NCBI GenBank assembly: GCA_963833575.1
Contig: CAWHXY010000006.1
Span: forward strand, 64,001 to 128,000
From: Candidatus Bathyarchaeota archaeon
GTDB taxonomy: Archaea; Thermoproteota; Bathyarchaeia; Bathyarchaeales; Bathycorpusculaceae
DNA length: 64,000 nucleotides
Reading direction: 5' to 3'
Shown: positions 39,506-54,528 of the stretch, piece after piece
Numbering within the stretch: the first letter of the stretch is position 1
How the letters are laid out: the number at the start of each line of letters is the position of its first letter
Made by a program: the position numbers and the translations under genes
Notes under the pieces: generated by a model
Database searches by the model: none
What the model saw: the letters and a program-made list of their open reading frames with translations, nothing else
Told to the model about the DNA's origin: nothing

Positions 39506-41188
39506 TCATGTGGAAGGTGTTTTAACTTTCAGGGCCGCCTTTTTAGCTATGTCTTCGGTTAACATGCCTATAAGTTGTCCGTTTTTAACCATGGCAGCGC
39601 GTTTTATGCCTTTTTCTCCCATTAACTTCATCGCTGTAAGCATTGATTCGTCTCCCTGAAGAAGTATAAGTGGTGTGTAGTTGAGGTCCTTTGTTGGAGT
39701 TTTCTTTGGATCTTTGTGTTCCATCACAATGTCTCGTAAAATGTCTTTGTCGCTTATCACTCCAACTGGCTTTTGGTTATCAGTTATTAAAACTGAAGCA
39801 ACATTGTTTTGCAACATTTTGTCCACGACTTTGGCAACGGTGTCAGTTGTAGAGACGTCCACAGAGGGAAGTTTTGTGCCGGCTTGGTTGCTGATTTCTG
39901 AAATATCTATGCCTCTCTTCCAAATATCATCAAGCATTTCGCTTACTCTTTCAATTTGGCCAGGGTCACTGGAGTAGAAAGTATCGACAAATGGGAATGC
40001 GGATTCAGTTCCAACATCGCTAAGCGGAGGCGCCTTAAACATAAACAAGTGCTTTTTGTCAACAAGCATCATTGTTAAGTAACTTATTGGTACATGCTTG
40101 ATTTCGTAGAGAGCTGAAAGTTTCTGTGCGGGTTCAAGATTATCTAGGTCAATGGACGCCATAATTTGGGTTTTTATGCCTTTTTTAAAGTAATCTACTA
40201 TGGGATCATTTTCAGCGAGACGATTAATACTTTGAGATGTGGTAATTATGACAATTTCTTTTTTAGCTGACTCTAAGATCTTTGTTACTTTGGTCCAAGC
40301 TTCTTCGCCACTTTTAATTACTAGTGTTTCGCCTATTGGTATTCCGCTTTTTAACTCGTCTATTCTTCTTGAGGCGTCAATTCCGATTTGCCACATCTGG
40401 ACAAAAAAAGCTTTCAAAACTGAAATGAACATTTTGTCGTTAATCCACAAGCCTTCATCTTCTAGATTCAAAACAGATGCTTCGTTGCCAAAAGGAGCAT
40501 ACAGTATGGCTTCTTCACCATCTTTAATTAAAAATCTCGGGAAAAACTTTGAAGTCATGCCGACGTGACGTAGTTTCATGTTCAATTTTTCTTCAACAAT
40601 GCTTTTGTCAAGCCTTTCTGCGACTTTGAGGTTTTCAGGGGCAATATCAGTTATAATTTGGAATTGAACTTTACGATCTTCAGAAGAAACTTCGGCGGTG
40701 TCAAAAATTCCTGCGATATCTTCTTGAATTAAGCCTAAAGCGGTTGTTAGAATTGTAACCTCACTTTTTGATTCCTCAATCATCGATAACATTTTAGAAT
40801 GAATCTTCTTTTTGCCTGTAATGATTGAGAATTTTGCTACTGGGTATTCTGATTCGGGTGCGCTAACGGACTGCCAAGCTGTAAGGAGACTCAGCTTCTG
40901 ATCAGTTAAGTTGGTAACTTCGTTCTTTTTAGCGTTAATAAACTGGTCAACTAATGCTTCAAACGGGACAATAGTAAACCTTGTAGGGCGCTCCAAAGTC
41001 GCTTCGATGAACCCTTTTTCCTGAAGCTTCTTAAAGGTACGGTAAGCTTGCACCCGCTCCATTTTAAGCCTTTTAGCCACAAAACTTGTTGATTGGACAC
41101 CGCTCTTAGCAAGAAACATATAAACTTGAATTTCTCGTTTGGATAACCCGAGAATCTGTAAGAATTTGGTTACGTCTTTTTCACTCAA
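39506..41188 (-). CDS. TrmB-family regulator with two effector domains and a C-terminal CBS pair
   Basis: LGLSKREIQVY HTH, two repeated effector units ending FFVQMWQ and MLDDIWK, and CBS motifs VGVISDKDI and LIGMLTED. Confidence 0.88.
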   Translation of the reverse strand: MSEKDVTKFLQILGLSKREIQVYMFLAKSGVQSTSFVAKRLKMERVQAYRTFKKLQEKGFIEATLERPTRFTIVPFEALVDQFINAKKNEVTNLTDQKLSLLTAWQSVSAPESEYPVAKFSIITGKKKIHSKMLSMIEESKSEVTILTTALGLIQEDIAGIFDTAEVSSEDRKVQFQIITDIAPENLKVAERLDKSIVEEKLNMKLRHVGMTSKFFPRFLIKDGEEAILYAPFGNEASVLNLEDEGLWINDKMFISVLKAFFVQMWQIGIDASRRIDELKSGIPIGETLVIKSGEEAWTKVTKILESAKKEIVIITTSQSINRLAENDPIVDYFKKGIKTQIMASIDLDNLEPAQKLSALYEIKHVPISYLTMMLVDKKHLFMFKAPPLSDVGTESAFPFVDTFYSSDPGQIERVSEMLDDIWKRGIDISEISNQAGTKLPSVDVSTTDTVAKVVDKMLQNNVASVLITDNQKPVGVISDKDILRDIVMEHKDPKKTPTKDLNYTPLILLQGDESMLTAMKLMGEKGIKRAAMVKNGQLIGMLTEDIAKKAALKVKTPST

Positions 41189-45743: not shown

Positions 45744-46442
45744 TCAGAGACGTTGTGCAACTATCATTGCGTGTGCTTTGTCGAAGGGCTCTAAATTTAC
45801 AACTTCTTTTACGTCAAAGCCTCTTTTCCGCAAAACATTGGCTTCCTGGCGATAAACCGCATCTGGCTCCATGGTCACGTCAATGCTTTGCGATTTCACC
45901 GCTAACATAACCCAGCCACCGGGTTTTAGGAATACGTCGGCGTTGTCTGCTAAGAGTTTTGCTTGTTCTGGTTGTGCTACGTCGCAGTAGATGGTGTCTA
46001 CTTTGCCTGATATGAACATGGCATATCTTTCGGGCATTCGTGCGTCTTCGAGAAGGGGCGATATGTTTGAGCGGTAAGCGGCAACGTTGTTTACTAAGTC
46101 TCTGATTGATCGTTGAGCAAACTCTACGCAGTAAACATATCCAGTTTCGCCAACGATGTCGGAGACATGGCTGGGCGTGGTTCCTGAAGCAGCTCCTAAG
46201 TAAAGCACTTTAAAACCAGGTTCTATAGGCACGTTTTGGACGCCTTTAAGGATGGCTGCTGCAAGCTTACTTCGGAAGGCATCCCAAATGCGGTATTCAA
46301 CGCCCTTGACTTTAGCAAGTCGTTCACCATAAACATTTAAGCCAGGCGTTAAGTTGACAGTGGCTAACCGTTGGGAACCGTCTTCAAGAGAAGCTTGATA
46401 GATTTCTTTGAATTTAAGATGCGGTTTAACCCAGACGGTCAA
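45744..46442 (-). CDS. flpA: Fibrillarin-like rRNA/tRNA 2'-O-methyltransferase
   Basis: VYGE, RSKLAAAI, VLYLGAASGTT.SHVSDI and DVAQPEQ. Confidence 0.97.
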   Translation of the reverse strand: MTVWVKPHLKFKEIYQASLEDGSQRLATVNLTPGLNVYGERLAKVKGVEYRIWDAFRSKLAAAILKGVQNVPIEPGFKVLYLGAASGTTPSHVSDIVGETGYVYCVEFAQRSIRDLVNNVAAYRSNISPLLEDARMPERYAMFISGKVDTIYCDVAQPEQAKLLADNADVFLKPGGWVMLAVKSQSIDVTMEPDAVYRQEANVLRKRGFDVKEVVNLEPFDKAHAMIVAQRL

Positions 46443-47737
46443 CGCCGTTCTCTTCTCCGATTCCTATCCCTACGCGGCCCACCATGATCTCTAAATGGAC
46501 GACCCCCACCTTCACGCGGCCTAAACGGTCGCTCTCCACCTTCTCTACGTTCAAATGATGGCCTCGGTTTAGGTTCCTTAGGTGGCGGCGGCTCCTTATA
46601 CTTCTCATGAATTTCTTCTAAACGTTTGTTAATATCAGCTTTTAATCTATCTCCGATATAGTGTCCTCCGAAAGCGTCAGCTCTCGCAGCGATAGCTAGT
46701 TTCCCAGCGATTACCCGCGCAATTTTTCCTCTCTGCCACCGCTTAGCATCATGCAAAAGGGTATGCTGGAAAATCAAGCCATGTTTTGGCGGACGAGCAC
46801 CTGTCTTTAATGAACGAAAAAGAGCTTTTTCTGCACCTAAAACCTGTATGGTGCTTGCTGGTCTCATAGCTAGATTCTGCAAGCTACCTGCAATAGCGAT
46901 TAATCTTGCACCCAGAAGTGAACCTGCAACTGCACGTACGTTAGGCGCCATTTCCTCCATGGTCGTGTCAACATAGCTATCCATGTTCTTGCGTAACTCA
47001 TAAAATGAAAGAACGTTGCGAGCTAATTCTTGTATCTGCTCCAAATCACGTTCTGCAATATCTGCTCCCATAGATGATTCAGCGGCTTTCACTACCAATT
47101 GGGATCTTTCTTTAGGAATATTTTCTTTCTCCAAAGCCTCGGCACTGTAGCTTTCTCTATCACCCAAGTTCATAACAAGTCTAGAGTAAGTTTCGTGTTT
47201 TTCGACTAAACGATCAAGCTCAGGAAAATACACACCATACCACTCTCTGAGTCTACCCATAAACAAGTTAACAGTACGATCTAAATCATCCAGCGTTTGT
47301 ATGCCTTGAGCTATAATCAGGTCTCTCTTTTCTGATGCACCTTTGATTCTTAATTTGGCAAGTTCCATGCTGACATTGCGGTTCCAAAGACTAAGTTCCT
47401 GCTCATCTTTAACAAAACCTGATTCAACTGCAACCTCATTCATTCGAGAACGTAAAACTTCAGCTTCTGCAGGTTTTGCAACCTCAACATTAACATTCAT
47501 TTTCCGCTGAACTTCTTCAGCCAAATTAGCTTTTTCAAAAACGAAAACGTCATAATCTGCATTTTTTAGTAGTGAAATTAAGAAGAAAACCTCATCAGGC
47601 ATTTTGCCAGCTTCCGTTTTTAGCAAGCTTCTTGCTGCTGCTTGAGGTTTCTTCGTAAATAGAACATTTTCAACTACACTATTTTTATCGTCGAAAGCCG
47701 CGACGCCGAACGGGAATTGGATTAGGAATGCTTTCAT
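46439..47737 (-). CDS. nop5: C/D box sRNP subunit Nop5 (Nop56/58)
   Basis: LREWYG..FPEL, PASTIQVLGAEKALFR, PKHGLIF and an Arg/Gly/Pro-rich tail; in an operon with flpA. Confidence 0.96.
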   Translation of the reverse strand: MKAFLIQFPFGVAAFDDKNSVVENVLFTKKPQAAARSLLKTEAGKMPDEVFFLISLLKNADYDVFVFEKANLAEEVQRKMNVNVEVAKPAEAEVLRSRMNEVAVESGFVKDEQELSLWNRNVSMELAKLRIKGASEKRDLIIAQGIQTLDDLDRTVNLFMGRLREWYGVYFPELDRLVEKHETYSRLVMNLGDRESYSAEALEKENIPKERSQLVVKAAESSMGADIAERDLEQIQELARNVLSFYELRKNMDSYVDTTMEEMAPNVRAVAGSLLGARLIAIAGSLQNLAMRPASTIQVLGAEKALFRSLKTGARPPKHGLIFQHTLLHDAKRWQRGKIARVIAGKLAIAARADAFGGHYIGDRLKADINKRLEEIHEKYKEPPPPKEPKPRPSFERREGGERPFRPREGGGRPFRDHGGPRRDRNRRRERR

Positions 47738-47993: not shown

Positions 47994-48163
47994 TATCAAT
48001 GCGCTTTGAATGATATATAACGATGTGACTGTACAATTACAGCAACAATTTTAAAAAAATGAATTTTTCCTTTACAGAACATTACGGAAGCAGTGAAGGT
48101 TCGATTTTAATCTGTAGAAACGATAGTTGCAGTTAAGTTTAAAGTCTGCAGTTAAATTATAGG

Positions 48164-50419
48164 TTGAGCACCGATCTTGGAGCTCAGAGGAAAAGGGTTA
48201 TGGTAAATCAGCCACCACAACGTGCACGCGGCGTAAAAGTTCTAAAAGCAGTCTCTTCACCGCTCAGGCTGCAAATCCTGAACCTACTTTTCGACAAAAG
48301 CGCACTCTCATATACTGAATTAATGAATCAACTAAAAATGAATCCCAGCCGAGATGCAGGCAGATTCGCTTATCACTTAAAATTCATGTTAAAAGCAGAT
48401 TTGGTTGAAGCAGATGTTGAAGCAAAAAAATACTTTTTGACTGACCTTGGCAAAATGGTTCTCGATGTAGCTGACCGCGTGGAGAGGAAAGCGTTTAAGC
48501 CGAGAGGCATGCTTGTTCGTACTTCACATTTAACTCTAGAAGAATTTGACGCAAACAAAATAGCCAATTCACTCATAAGAGAAGCTAAGGTGCCACCTGA
48601 ACTTGCTCAGAAAACAGCTAAAGAAACTGAAAAACGTCTAATCAAATCAAAAACAAAGTATCTTACTGCTTCCCTAATCAGGGAAGTAGTAAATGGCATT
48701 CTAATTGAGAAAGGGTACGAAGAGTACCGCAATAAACTCACAAGAGTCGGAATGCCCGTACATGAAGTAACAACTTCAATAGAGGCGAAAGACCAAGCCA
48801 TAGACTCAACAACGTTACTTGCAAGGGCAGGTCAAACAGTTCTTGGCGAATACACGCTGCTCAACATTTTTCCAAGAGACATAGCTGATGCTCACCTTTC
48901 AGGTACCATCCACGTTGATAGTTTAGGTACATGGATTCTTAAGACCAACGAAGTCAGCCACGATCTACGGTTTTTCTTTCAAAACGGTGTAAAGTTGGAC
49001 AATCCGCTTCAAACTTCAATGGATCCGCCGAGCGATTTCGAATCTGCCTTTGCAATTGCTTTCAATGTGCTTTTGCATGCGAACAAAGAAACAAATCGTA
49101 CTCAAATATACAATTACTTTAACGTTTTTCTTGCGCCCTTCATCAAGGGCACAGAAATACAAAGAATAAAAGAAAATCTACGTTTACTAATTTTGAATCT
49201 AAATCAGCATGTTGAAGCCACTTTGGTCCTTGATCTCATAATTCCAAAATTAACTGCGGAAAAAGAAGCAATTGGCCCAATGGGAAAAATAGTTGGAAAA
49301 TACAGTGACTTTGTCCAAGAAAGCCAACTATTGGCATCTCTTATCCTTGAAGTTTTTTTGGAAGAGAACGCTAAGAGACCGCTTCTCAATCCCAAGCTAA
49401 TCATTAAAATAAATAAGGAGTCCTTAGAAGACGAAAAATTGAGAGAAGTTCTTCTGAAGGCGCATCGTTTGGCAGCAGAAAGAGGAACGCCTTACTTCGC
49501 TAACACTACAAAGAAAGAAACAGAAAACACTGTTTTTTCGCCTTCAGGAGTCAAACTGGCGGCTGATCTAACCGGAGATTGGGAAACTGACACTCTGCGC
49601 ACGGGCTGTCTTGGATGCGTAACAATAAATTTACCAAGAATTACTCAAGAAAGTGAAAAAGACCAAAACAAGTTTTTCGAGCTTATACGAGAACGTTTTG
49701 AACTTGCCGCCCGAGCTATAGGAATAAAAAACAATGCGTTAAAACAGTTCGGAAAAAACTCAATGCCTTTCCTATTAAAAAGCTCAAGCGGAGATACATA
49801 TTTCAGGCTCGAAAACTGTTCCAGAATCATTAATTTGGCTGGGTTCCGAGAAGCCGTAGAAGCTTTCACTGAAAAAAGTATAAATTCGGAAGAGAGCCGC
49901 AGGTTCACAGAAGAAATTATTCAAAACCTCTTGGCCTTTAAACAGAAAATTGGCAGAAAACATGGAAGACGTCTTTACCCGGCTATACTCGGCGACGTTG
50001 AGGCTTCAGAACGTCTCGCACAATTAGATATAGAAAAGTACGGTATTGCCAAAGTTAAGTTTTCGGGAACCCGTGAGAAACCCTATTACTCAACCCTTAA
50101 AAGATTCCAAGTTAGACCTGCAGGTGAGCTCCTTAGTCTTCAAACTGATGCGATTGATACGGCACAAAAATTCAAAGGGCTAAACACTGGCGGAAGCCTA
50201 AGCATATTAGAGTTGGAATCCAGTGAAGTTAAACCTGAAGCGTTAATGGATTTGACAAGACGCTTAATTGAGAACCAAACCTTGGAATTTTTCACTTACA
50301 ACCGCATAATTAGTTACTGTGATAACTGCAAGAAAAGTTGGTTTGGAACCCTGCACAAATGCGCATGCTGCGGCTCCATGAGTGCACTGACCACTTTCGA
50401 CCGCTTTACTTCAACCTAA
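48164..50419 (+). CDS. ArsR-type wHTH + ATP cone + degenerate class III ribonucleotide reductase (NrdD-like) fusion
   Basis: wHTH (SSPLRLQIL, SYTELM, FAYHLKFM..ADLV), ATP cone (VRTS..EFDANKI...LIREVV), and NrdD core (IADAHLSGTIHV, HDLR, TGDWETDTLRTG, VTINLPR, GG, CxxC..CxxCG). The catalytic motifs are absent. Confidence 0.88.
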   Translation: MSTDLGAQRKRVMVNQPPQRARGVKVLKAVSSPLRLQILNLLFDKSALSYTELMNQLKMNPSRDAGRFAYHLKFMLKADLVEADVEAKKYFLTDLGKMVLDVADRVERKAFKPRGMLVRTSHLTLEEFDANKIANSLIREAKVPPELAQKTAKETEKRLIKSKTKYLTASLIREVVNGILIEKGYEEYRNKLTRVGMPVHEVTTSIEAKDQAIDSTTLLARAGQTVLGEYTLLNIFPRDIADAHLSGTIHVDSLGTWILKTNEVSHDLRFFFQNGVKLDNPLQTSMDPPSDFESAFAIAFNVLLHANKETNRTQIYNYFNVFLAPFIKGTEIQRIKENLRLLILNLNQHVEATLVLDLIIPKLTAEKEAIGPMGKIVGKYSDFVQESQLLASLILEVFLEENAKRPLLNPKLIIKINKESLEDEKLREVLLKAHRLAAERGTPYFANTTKKETENTVFSPSGVKLAADLTGDWETDTLRTGCLGCVTINLPRITQESEKDQNKFFELIRERFELAARAIGIKNNALKQFGKNSMPFLLKSSSGDTYFRLENCSRIINLAGFREAVEAFTEKSINSEESRRFTEEIIQNLLAFKQKIGRKHGRRLYPAILGDVEASERLAQLDIEKYGIAKVKFSGTREKPYYSTLKRFQVRPAGELLSLQTDAIDTAQKFKGLNTGGSLSILELESSEVKPEALMDLTRRLIENQTLEFFTYNRIISYCDNCKKSWFGTLHKCACCGSMSALTTFDRFTST

Positions 50420-50421
50420 AC

Positions 50422-51420
<999 letters not shown>

Positions 51421-52926: not shown

Positions 52927-54528
52927 ATGGTCATGCTTATTATTCCAATAATAGTTTTATCAGCATTCAATTTCCCCAGCACCAAAGCGACTGACGAAAA
53001 TTCCTCATGGACAACTATGACGCCCATGCCAACCGCTAGAGGTGGACTCGGTGTTGCCGCTGTAAATGGAAAAATCTATGCTGTCGGCGGCTTGAATGGT
53101 AATTCACCTGTTAACAATAATGAACAGTTTGACCCCATTTCAAATCAGTGGACCGTCGAAATGCCTATGCCTACTGCTAGAAGCGGTTTTGCAATTGCTG
53201 TTTATGATAACAAAATTTATTGTATAGGTGGAACAGTCGGCAATGGGTATGTTGCAAACAACGAAGTCTATGATCCCTCAACGAATACGTGGGAAACAAA
53301 GGCATCCATGCCTACTCCTAGATCTGACCTAACTGCAAGCGTAGTGAACGATAAGATTTACCTAATAGGTGGAAAAAAATATTCAAACGCTGACCCTTAT
53401 TTCATTGAAACTAACGTAAACGAGGTTTACGATCCAGCAAACAACACGTGGACTACTAAAGCATCTATCCCAACAGCTGTTTATGGATACGCCTCAGCGA
53501 CAATAAACGGAAAAGTCTACATTATCGGGGGATCAAATAATCCTACATCATCACAAAATGGCGCTTTAATTAACGCTAATCAAGTCTATGACCCCCAAAC
53601 CGATAACTGGAGTTTAGCGGCGAACTTACCTACCTTAGCAACATATGGCGCTGCAGCAGCAACTGAAGACTATATGGTACCTTCACGATTATATTTGGTA
53701 GGAGGATATCTTTGGGATACTTTTAGCAGCAAAACCCAAATCTATAATCCCTCTAACAATTCCTGGACCGAAGGCCCATCGCTACCTTCGCCCGAAGCGC
53801 ATTTGGGTCTTGCAGTTGTAAACGACATTTTATATGCAATCGGCGGATTTGATGGGCAAAATTGGTTAGATACAAATTCCCAATATAAACCTGCTGACTA
53901 TGGAACGGTGCCCCCGAAACTTGAAATTACGTCTCCTGAAAACAAGACTTATTCGCATGTAAATTTGACGTATAGTATCAACAGGGATGCTGATTGGACG
54001 GGTTATAGTGTAGATAATCAAGCGAATGTAACAATTACTGGAGGAACTAACATATTGGGCTTATCTCAAGGAGGACACAGTATAATATTGTACGCAAATG
54101 ATAGCCAAGGTAATATGGGTTCTTCTGGCACAGTTTACTTTTCAGTAGACTCGCTTCCTCCAACCATTGTTATAATGATTCCTCAAAACCAAACTTATGG
54201 TTCCACTGACATGCAATTGACTTTCACAATCAATAAGGCTGTCTCAAAGCTATCATACGATCTAGATGGTGAAGGAAACATAACAATAATTGGAAACGTA
54301 ACTTTGCCAGCGTTGTCTGATGGTTCACACCGTGTAACCGTTTACGCAACCGACTTACTGGGTAACTCTGGCTCAGCTGTCGTTTACTTTAACATAACGT
54401 CTTTTCCATTTATAGCGGTTGCAGCAACCGCAGCAATAGTAATTATAGCTTTAGCCGCTGGATTTCTGTTTTATAAACGCAGAAAACCAAGCAGCAACCA
54501 AGAACAAAAAAGTGTAATTGCCCAGTAA
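52927..54528 (+). CDS. Secreted Kelch-repeat protein with Ig-like domains and TM anchor
   Basis: Six Kelch repeats (IY.IGG...YDP..N.W...MPT.R), two Ig-like units, then TM + KRRK. Confidence 0.9.
   Translation: MVMLIIPIIVLSAFNFPSTKATDENSSWTTMTPMPTARGGLGVAAVNGKIYAVGGLNGNSPVNNNEQFDPISNQWTVEMPMPTARSGFAIAVYDNKIYCIGGTVGNGYVANNEVYDPSTNTWETKASMPTPRSDLTASVVNDKIYLIGGKKYSNADPYFIETNVNEVYDPANNTWTTKASIPTAVYGYASATINGKVYIIGGSNNPTSSQNGALINANQVYDPQTDNWSLAANLPTLATYGAAAATEDYMVPSRLYLVGGYLWDTFSSKTQIYNPSNNSWTEGPSLPSPEAHLGLAVVNDILYAIGGFDGQNWLDTNSQYKPADYGTVPPKLEITSPENKTYSHVNLTYSINRDADWTGYSVDNQANVTITGGTNILGLSQGGHSIILYANDSQGNMGSSGTVYFSVDSLPPTIVIMIPQNQTYGSTDMQLTFTINKAVSKLSYDLDGEGNITIIGNVTLPALSDGSHRVTVYATDLLGNSGSAVVYFNITSFPFIAVAATAAIVIIALAAGFLFYKRRKPSSNQEQKSVIAQ

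Follow-up and report, generated by a model that had tools for sequence, protein, structure and literature searches.

A catalytically dead class III ribonucleotide reductase fused to a winged helix-turn-helix, a candidate nucleotide-sensing transcription factor of Bathyarchaeia and other archaea

In a stretch of 64,000 nucleotides from a Candidatus Bathyarchaeota archaeon (assembly GCA_963833575.1, contig CAWHXY010000006.1, positions 64,001 to 128,000; referred to below as the window), a gene was identified whose product joins an N-terminal winged helix-turn-helix (HTH) and an ATP-cone to the body of a class III ribonucleotide reductase (RNR), NrdD, that lacks the residues of radical chemistry. 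Three radical-chemistry positions are lost throughout the family while the reading frame is under purifying selection, which strongly supports the initial annotation of the window in calling the product a pseudoenzyme. In bacteria, the control of RNR genes at the level of transcription is well known from NrdR. Based on its domain logic, on selection and on gene order, the protein is probably a dimeric, nucleotide-sensing winged-helix regulator of RNR genes, a pseudo-enzyme serving as a transcription factor for the supply of deoxyribonucleoside triphosphates (dNTPs) in a manner analogous to NrdR.

A single open reading frame (ORF) of 751 codons, free of internal stops, runs from TTG 48164 to the stop codon TAA at 50417-50419 (window 48164-50419, plus strand, as are all features of the gene given below). 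The initial annotation was right in describing one uninterrupted frame, but 12 of its 751 residues come from the upstream TTG and are probably unused. The database copy (739 aa, 100% identity) starts at ATG 48200, 12 codons past TTG 48164, and the lengths of the 120 best relatives listed are mostly 737-739 aa. In an alignment of the genus, the sequence 5' of ATG 48200 contains indels with lengths not divisible by three and must therefore be non-coding. The probable start is ATG 48200, giving a coding sequence of 48200..50419 and a protein of 739 aa.

The domains are arranged in the order winged HTH, ATP-cone, NrdD barrel and Cys4 zinc site, as initially annotated; the Pfam matches to the HTH and the ATP-cone exceeded their cut-offs and the zinc cysteines are in place. 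The winged HTH (ArsR/HTH_5, DUF7347; 48239..48463) was matched by DUF7347 at 26-100 of the 751-codon frame with 30.5 bits (cut-off 27.6) and by HTH_5 at 32-82 with 27.2 bits (cut-off 22). Its residues L30, H59, Y78 and G84 are invariant, and invariant residues are present in the putative recognition helix, FAYHLKFML (48365-48391). The ATP-cone (48512..48727; Pfam ATP-cone at 117-188, 31.8 bits, cut-off 25.8) is of a divergent type, with VRTS at 48515-48526 where canonical cones have K-R-D-G, and is followed by a conserved linker, TRVGMP (48740-48757). The ten-stranded NrdD-like barrel (48821..50404) was matched by Pfam NRDD at 220-747 with 225 bits and an E value of 2e-66. Among the NCBIfam models the NrdD equivalog TIGR02487 scored 239.1 bits, under its cut-off of 326.35, and the remaining NrdD models were all far under theirs. 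Four of the eight cysteines of the protein constitute the CxxC...CxxC zinc site (C707, C710, C721 and C724 in 739-aa numbering; 50318..50371), which is invariant in 65/65 family members. No Zn_ribbon_NrdR match was found in the protein with Pfam.

An AlphaFold2 model built with the family alignment as input had a predicted local distance difference test score (pLDDT) of 90.6 and a predicted template modelling (TM) score of 0.81. Residues 6-98 at the N-terminus of the model form four helices, two strands and one helix, which is the order of a winged helix. The top-ranked matches to the PDB in Foldseek were class III RNRs, including 9d3x, 8p2s, 4coj and 1hk8, the best of which gave TM scores of 0.6-0.77 normalised to the target. 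Prediction of a barrel homodimer (residues 196-690, two copies) gave a median score of 0.41 against a mark of 0.42, which is evidence neither way.

PMC9669993 places the finger-loop Cys of class III RNR in an MGCR or MCCR motif and reports the beta-A Cys to be conserved in 92.6% of class III RNRs. In an alignment to T4 NrdD, TNCC stands opposite TNEV and SPMGCRS opposite SPSGVKL, and the C-terminus falls short of the glycyl loop. The beta-A Cys column falls in KTNEVSHDL (48941..48967), where it is occupied by Glu (PYCVGW in the NrdD of the same genome), the finger-loop segment FSPSGVKL (49535..49558) is free of Cys (SMCCRL in the genome's own NrdD), and the C-terminus FDRFTST (50396..50416) ends where active enzymes have the R-x-x-G-Y glycyl-radical loop. 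Alignment to the genome's own NrdD (23% identity) revealed the same losses. The motifs quoted in the initial annotation (KTNEVSHDL, IHVDSL, FSPSGVKL, TGDWETDTLRTG, GCLGCV, CDNC...CACC and FDRFTST followed by the stop) were all found in their places, and both alignments bear out the missing catalytic Cys and Gly.

The losses are shared by the family. Cys occupies the beta-A column in 0/69 family rows and the finger-loop column in 2/69; at the glycyl loop, 1% of rows have the Tyr and 17% the Gly, and a tail resembling R-x-x-G-Y was found in only 1/65 HTH-bearing members. In the more basal members part of the glycyl domain survives as S-R-x-x-x-[KTN]-Y...W, with the glycine substituted, and the clade of the window protein is without that tail entirely. 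An alignment of 113 rows comprised the window protein, the genome's own NrdD, 16 locus proteins and 95 representatives, namely those 560-820 aa long out of 150 listed. The full catalytic set (beta-A Cys, finger-loop Cys and Gly-Tyr) was present in 16 of these rows, none of which carries the HTH. In three of the 16, about 95 extra N-terminal residues contain ATP-cone matches (two stretches in P0188 and P0190, one in P0209) and no HTH family. No row with the HTH has the complete set; two of them, P0151 and P0161, have Cys at the aligned finger-loop column with the other catalytic positions absent.

Among the 65 members with the HTH, Cys reaches 30% of rows or more at the columns of the four zinc ligands and nowhere else. 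Both cysteines in GCLGCV (49604..49639, together with the INLPR that comes after it) are therefore not an active site, an option raised in the initial annotation; they are unconserved, being Cys in 11/65 and 6/65 members, while the Asn of INLPR is invariant. A glycyl carrier acting in trans was considered and rejected, as no match to the Gly_radical family was found in this genome (94% complete) and no conserved Cys is available to take the radical. Columns shared by at least 90% of 16 active archaeal-type NrdDs numbered 85. In at least 80% of the 69 family rows 23 of them are kept, including A-H-x-x-G-x-x-H, NLPR, G-x-x-E, R-x-x-x-x-D and the zinc site, and 32 are kept in less than 20%, among them the catalytic positions and many polar residues. 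To judge from this retention, the barrel is preserved as a fold and much of the lining of the active site is gone. The proposal that the RNR substrate and allosteric sites are reused is therefore not supported in the form initially given, since the best-kept parts of the protein are the HTH, the ATP-cone and the linker.

Further NrdD paralogues which appear dead and lack the HTH were encountered (L139:4188-6056, minus strand; P0236, P0184 and P0198). In one of these the radical Gly is replaced by Ala and the finger loop could not be aligned; another has two ATP-cones and terminates at the zinc site. In addition, proteins of 1000-1700 aa (e.g. P0191, P0214, P0230 and P0232) are relatives of active type that match NrdD in 2-4 separate stretches, which suggests inteins or other large insertions.

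The gene was present in 23/24 genomes of the genus, the sole genome without it being 65% complete, and in 16/16 other genomes of the order, from 11 families. The HTH and cone module (first 200 residues, E <=1e-20) was detected in 236/401 sampled genomes and 93/163 genera of the phylum, as a single copy per genome in nearly all listed rows; some families of the phylum gave no match (e.g. 0/24, 0/20 and 0/19 genomes). The 120 best relatives after clustering at 90% were 74-100% identical to the window protein, and 118 of them carried an HTH-type family, the ATP-cone and NRDD. At E <=0.001 there were 1687 matching proteins among representatives at 50% identity, and a scan of one genome per species yielded at least 598 relatives, the best 80 of which included 73 labelled Bathyarchaeota, Bathyarchaeia, Bathycorpusculum or MCG-6. 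Labelled members belong to Nitrososphaeraceae, Promethearchaeota (Asgard archaea) and Bathyarchaeia. The protein of family f21 (69 genomes sampled, one flagged as unpublished) is 94% identical to a protein of Candidatus Nitrosotenuis aquarius, and in 5/5 complete genomes of this ammonia-oxidiser type the NRDD matches lie inside this gene, save one hit of 17.8 bits elsewhere. ESM Atlas clusters with the same domain set, taken as leads only, were led by Bathyarchaeota, Nitrososphaerota, Promethearchaeota, Thermoproteota and Nanobdellota. Public names are mostly "anaerobic ribonucleoside-triphosphate reductase", besides "ArsR family transcriptional regulator" and "helix-turn-helix domain-containing protein".

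Over 45 pairs with a synonymous divergence (dS) of 0.05 to 1.2, the median ratio of nonsynonymous to synonymous substitution (dN/dS) was 0.092 for the whole protein, 0.034 for the HTH, 0.040 for the cone and linker and 0.114 for the barrel, these ratios being approximate because dS was high (0.37-1.2). The columns invariant in 65 members cluster in the HTH, the cone and the linker, to which the Asn of INLPR and the four zinc Cys are added. As judged from purifying selection and the breadth of the family, the gene is not a decaying copy, and decay confined to one strain, which had been named as an alternative at the outset, is refuted. Two broken copies were noted. The only copy in one genome is in pieces with stops (G023:C15:47582-49779), and another genome has, beside the intact gene, a second copy with four TAA stops (G004:C4:3071-5286); these may represent occasional loss or assembly error.

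Gene order was analyzed at several depths. In the window, pyrB (aspartate carbamoyltransferase catalytic chain, identified with Pfam; 50422..51342, minus strand) is convergent with the gene and starts 2 bases past its stop codon. Among the loci of the best 80 relatives of the one-genome-per-species scan, pyrB is convergent within 312 bp in 77/78 Bathyarchaeia loci with enough downstream sequence. Across the phylum, 48 loci were taken blind to their neighbours, 1-3 per family except for 10 from f21. An RNR gene lies directly downstream on the same strand, 146-480 bp away, in 16 of them, comprising 12 class II nrdJ genes (f21 and f13) and four of nrdD type (f6, f15, f23 and f47); one nrdJ product was checked with Pfam and contains ATP-cone, Ribonuc_red_lgN and Ribonuc_red_lgC. 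In another 16, pyrB or pyrI is convergent with no RNR gene between. A second gene of NrdD type, in which the cysteines and SRITGYYQ are intact, lies downstream on the same strand at a distance of 250-605 bp in 8/16 other genomes of the window's order, with a convergent pyrB beyond it; these eight loci were chosen after the neighbour had already been seen. Adjacency to nrdD or nrdJ was found in 10 families of the phylum. Since the gene adjoins RNR genes of two classes, its position argues for a functional tie to them rather than a mere remnant of duplication. The arrangement in the genus of the window looks like the ancestral order (regulator, nrdD, convergent pyrB) minus nrdD. A Bathyarchaeota contig (L067:4628-10733) carries the gene twice, the copies being inverted relative to each other, and a separate pyrB converges on each.

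The working RNR of this organism is encoded elsewhere in the 2.75 Mb assembly. A second NRDD match of 662 bits lies on contig C7, within a bacterial-style nrdR-nrdD-nrdG operon (L001:766-4028), and its product carries MCCR and RVVGY. No NrdG-type activase was found in the 64-kb window, in agreement with the initial annotation, and the only such match above the cut-off in the genome is the one beside the true nrdD on contig C7. No class I or II RNR barrel was found in this genome. Its NrdR contains Zn_ribbon_NrdR and an ATP-cone in 148 aa. Near-palindromes rich in A and T, similar in appearance to NrdR boxes, lie within 100 bases upstream of nrdR.

The VRTS variant of the cone and the linker also occur in one type of adjacent active archaeal NrdD; the canonical K-R-D-G cone is found in the genome's own NrdD and NrdR and in the nrdJ product. 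In a quick maximum-likelihood tree of 72 barrel sequences, 53 family rows grouped together beside a clade of adjacent archaeal NrdDs. Two long rows labelled as adjacent, the L139 variant and NrdDadj_L132, stand at the base of the family group; the latter is an ORF of the opposite strand with a branch of 4.06 changes per column and is to be ignored. The starred branches allow a single origin of the family. The protein would thus descend from an ancient duplicate of an archaeal class III RNR which kept the fold, zinc site and ATP-cone, lost the thiyl Cys, beta-A Cys and glycyl-radical loop, and gained an N-terminal winged helix of ArsR type.

As a regulator of RNR genes, the protein is envisaged to dimerise through its NrdD-like body, so that two winged helices could contact an operator. 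Binding of a nucleotide, for which the ATP-cone is the likeliest site, would alter the affinity for DNA, and the output would be transcription of the RNR gene of the cell, nrdD or nrdJ as the lineage has it. The regulator's own gene is probably also a target, and the pyrimidine synthesis genes possibly so. In the genus of the window, the neighbouring nrdD would have been lost, leaving pyrB alone beside the gene and the working RNR in the nrdR-nrdD-nrdG operon. A broader proposal, possible although on balance doubtful, is that the family is the missing archaeal counterpart of NrdR, a master regulator of dNTP supply in Bathyarchaeia, ammonia-oxidising Nitrososphaeria and Asgard archaea. The dead RNR would then serve as an allosteric stand-in for the enzyme, reading the state of adenine nucleotides, possibly with the balance of dNTPs, into transcription of whichever RNR class is present, perhaps coupled to pyrimidine synthesis.

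The upstream region was inspected for regulatory elements. A promoter-like TATA element, GTTAAGTTTAAAG (48132-48144), and a downstream block (48159-48172; together 48132..48172) are both conserved in the genus. The alignment of 27 upstream regions from the genus, 12 of them printed, contained no clear palindrome, conservation being confined to the TATA-like element and the leader region, and no shared motif was found that links the region upstream of the gene with other sites of this genome. In nine f21 loci, the density of GATC per kb was as high as 12.8 in the region upstream of the gene and 15.5 in the spacer before nrdJ, compared with 3.7 in the rest of the loci and 1.7 in 25 other ORF-free gaps. 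These words often read TGATC followed by A-runs, at about eight times the density of other ORF-free gaps (L112, L113 and L150-L156). The clusters are a candidate operator signal and possibly a shared cis-element in ammonia oxidisers.

Several observations weigh against a nucleotide-sensing regulator of RNR genes. The ATP-cone of the window protein scores low, with 31.8 bits against 91 for that of the genome's own NrdD, and is without the canonical Lys-Arg pair, so that the ligand is uncertain. The true nrdD of this genome sits apart with its own NrdR, and a role specific to RNR is therefore not obviously needed here. The suggestion of a functional analogue of NrdR, made in the initial annotation, draws only indirect support, from the gene order beside nrdD or nrdJ in 10 families, and a true NrdR is encoded in the same genome. 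In 16 of the 48 phylum loci the gene has no RNR or pyr gene beside it, and convergence of pyrB or pyrI is an unusual placement for a regulator relative to its target. Of the four adjacent nrdD-type genes, one (L139) codes for Ala instead of the radical Gly and lacks a finger loop that can be aligned, and in another (L132) the cysteines are kept but the tail is frameshifted. When up to 2 mismatches were allowed, the conserved promoter block was not enriched elsewhere in the genome (26 matches compared with 18 for the reversed block as control), and no match lay near the nrd or pyr genes of this genome. The GATC counts come from nine related genomes, and one of the regions partly overlaps a small ORF.

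Part of this evidence could be accommodated by a transcription factor whose main regulon lies outside ribonucleotide reduction, in a broader set of genes for nucleotide metabolism or replication such as pyrBI, with nrd adjacency in some lineages as order inherited from the duplication that gave rise to the gene. Convergent pyrB or pyrI directly downstream in 77/78 Bathyarchaeia and 16/48 phylum loci would agree with this, as would the strong selection on the gene in a genus whose nrdDG has its own NrdR, and a position beside nrdD is the expected leftover of tandem duplication. Adjacency to the class II gene nrdJ (12 loci, f21 and f13), however, cannot stem from duplication of nrdD, and convergent genes have no promoter in common, so that this explanation is considered unlikely. 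Less probable again is action mainly by protein contacts, as a decoy or partner of the active RNR or activase or as a nucleotide buffer, with the winged helix put to some other use. Selection on the entire NrdD body and zinc site (barrel dN/dS 0.114) and nrdD adjacency in several families would be expected of such a protein, but the HTH is the most constrained part, with invariant residues in its putative recognition helix, and in ammonia oxidisers the gene adjoins a class II enzyme of different architecture. The complete ammonia-oxidiser-type genomes, moreover, offer no other NRDD partner apart from the 17.8-bit hit; this also disfavours, as a general mechanism, the heterodimer with a true NrdD that had been suggested initially.

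That the protein is still an enzyme, either a reductase with its radical supplied in trans or a catalyst of other chemistry on the RNR scaffold, is very improbable. An intact frame, a confidently predicted fold and the retention of NLPR, G-x-x-E, R-x-x-x-x-D and the zinc site are what an enzyme would display. The conserved Cys columns of the 65 members are nevertheless the zinc ligands only, 32/85 NrdD-conserved columns, many of them polar, are lost, and a protein of the Gly_radical family was absent from the matches in the 94%-complete genome. The family is present, too, in relatives labelled ammonia oxidisers, which are aerobes, where a glycyl radical would not survive. A dimeric winged-helix regulator of dNTP supply remains the preferred reading.

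Compared with known systems, the protein resembles NrdR most in its proposed role, the setting of RNR transcription by nucleotide state; both combine a DNA-binding module with an ATP-cone, and both genes are often found immediately 5' of an RNR gene. As the zinc ribbon is missing, the protein is not itself an NrdR. In place of the ribbon there is a winged helix of ArsR type, joined to some 540 aa of dead RNR body, the cone has R-T-S for K-R-D-G and thus no canonical K-R pair, and a true NrdR coexists with it in this genome. With the adjacent archaeal class III NrdD it shares the fold, the Cys4 zinc site, the VRTS-type ATP-cone and the linker, with about 30% identity over residues 105-734. To judge by its residues, it is not an NrdD enzyme in the functional sense because the three defining ones (beta-A Cys, finger-loop Cys and Gly-Tyr loop) are absent; it also has the extra N-terminal HTH, reaches 239 bits against the NCBIfam cut-off of 326, and belongs to a family found also in genomes without any active NrdD. 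MocR/GabR regulators join an aminotransferase fold, and ROK repressors a sugar-kinase fold, to a winged HTH. Like the window protein, they have an N-terminal winged helix on a large domain of enzyme descent that serves as ligand sensor and dimerisation body; they differ in fold, and the window protein has none of the catalytic residues left and possesses the ATP-cone as a second sensor domain. No regulator of this design derived from an RNR was found in the literature searched.

PMC9110341 describes NrdR as rare in archaea. Full-text searches of openly available papers and look-ups in papers on RNR, NrdR and glycyl-radical enzymes revealed no account of an NrdD that is fused to an HTH or catalytically dead, and the archaeal family is apparently large and undescribed. 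The candidate regulator is single-copy, strongly conserved and carried by 236/401 sampled genomes of the phylum, with relatives in Candidatus Nitrosotenuis and Asgard archaea. If the proposed role is true, it would be a clear case of a whole radical enzyme recycled as a sensor domain. The label "anaerobic ribonucleoside-triphosphate reductase" is likely to mislead metabolic reconstructions; ammonia oxidisers, for instance, would be credited with a class III RNR, though 5/5 complete genomes gave no other NrdD-type gene.

Some minor observations concern the sequences around these genes. In seven spacers between regulator and nrdD (L024-L030), the first 60 bases after the stop contain a block similar to TACA..ATTTTATAC and, beyond it, TCTAAAAATT(T/A)AA. 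A T-rich block just past the stop and a TATA-like block are common to the spacers. These were not counted as an operator, since a terminator and a promoter would explain them equally. An ORF of 108 aa resembling glutaredoxin (Pfam Glutaredoxin, 31.6 bits; L027:4733-5059, minus strand, with similar ORFs in L028, L029 and L030) sits between the gene of the dead RNR and the active nrdD in two families, and would be in keeping with a class III enzyme that depends on thiols. An RNA run contained 0.05 of the sampled words, and its contigs cover 48123-48432, 49459-50533 and parts of pyrB. As they are 88-95% alike to the window, they derive from a relative and were rejected as proof of transcription of this gene.

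Elsewhere in the window, the genes for Fibrillarin and Nop5 (45744-47737, minus strand) are divergent from the regulator gene, with a spacer of 462 bp between. A 560-aa regulator of TrmB type fused to a CBS domain is encoded at 39506-41188 (minus strand), and 52927-54528 (plus strand) encodes a protein of 533 aa with Kelch repeats, an Ig-like domain and a hydrophobic stretch at its C-terminus.

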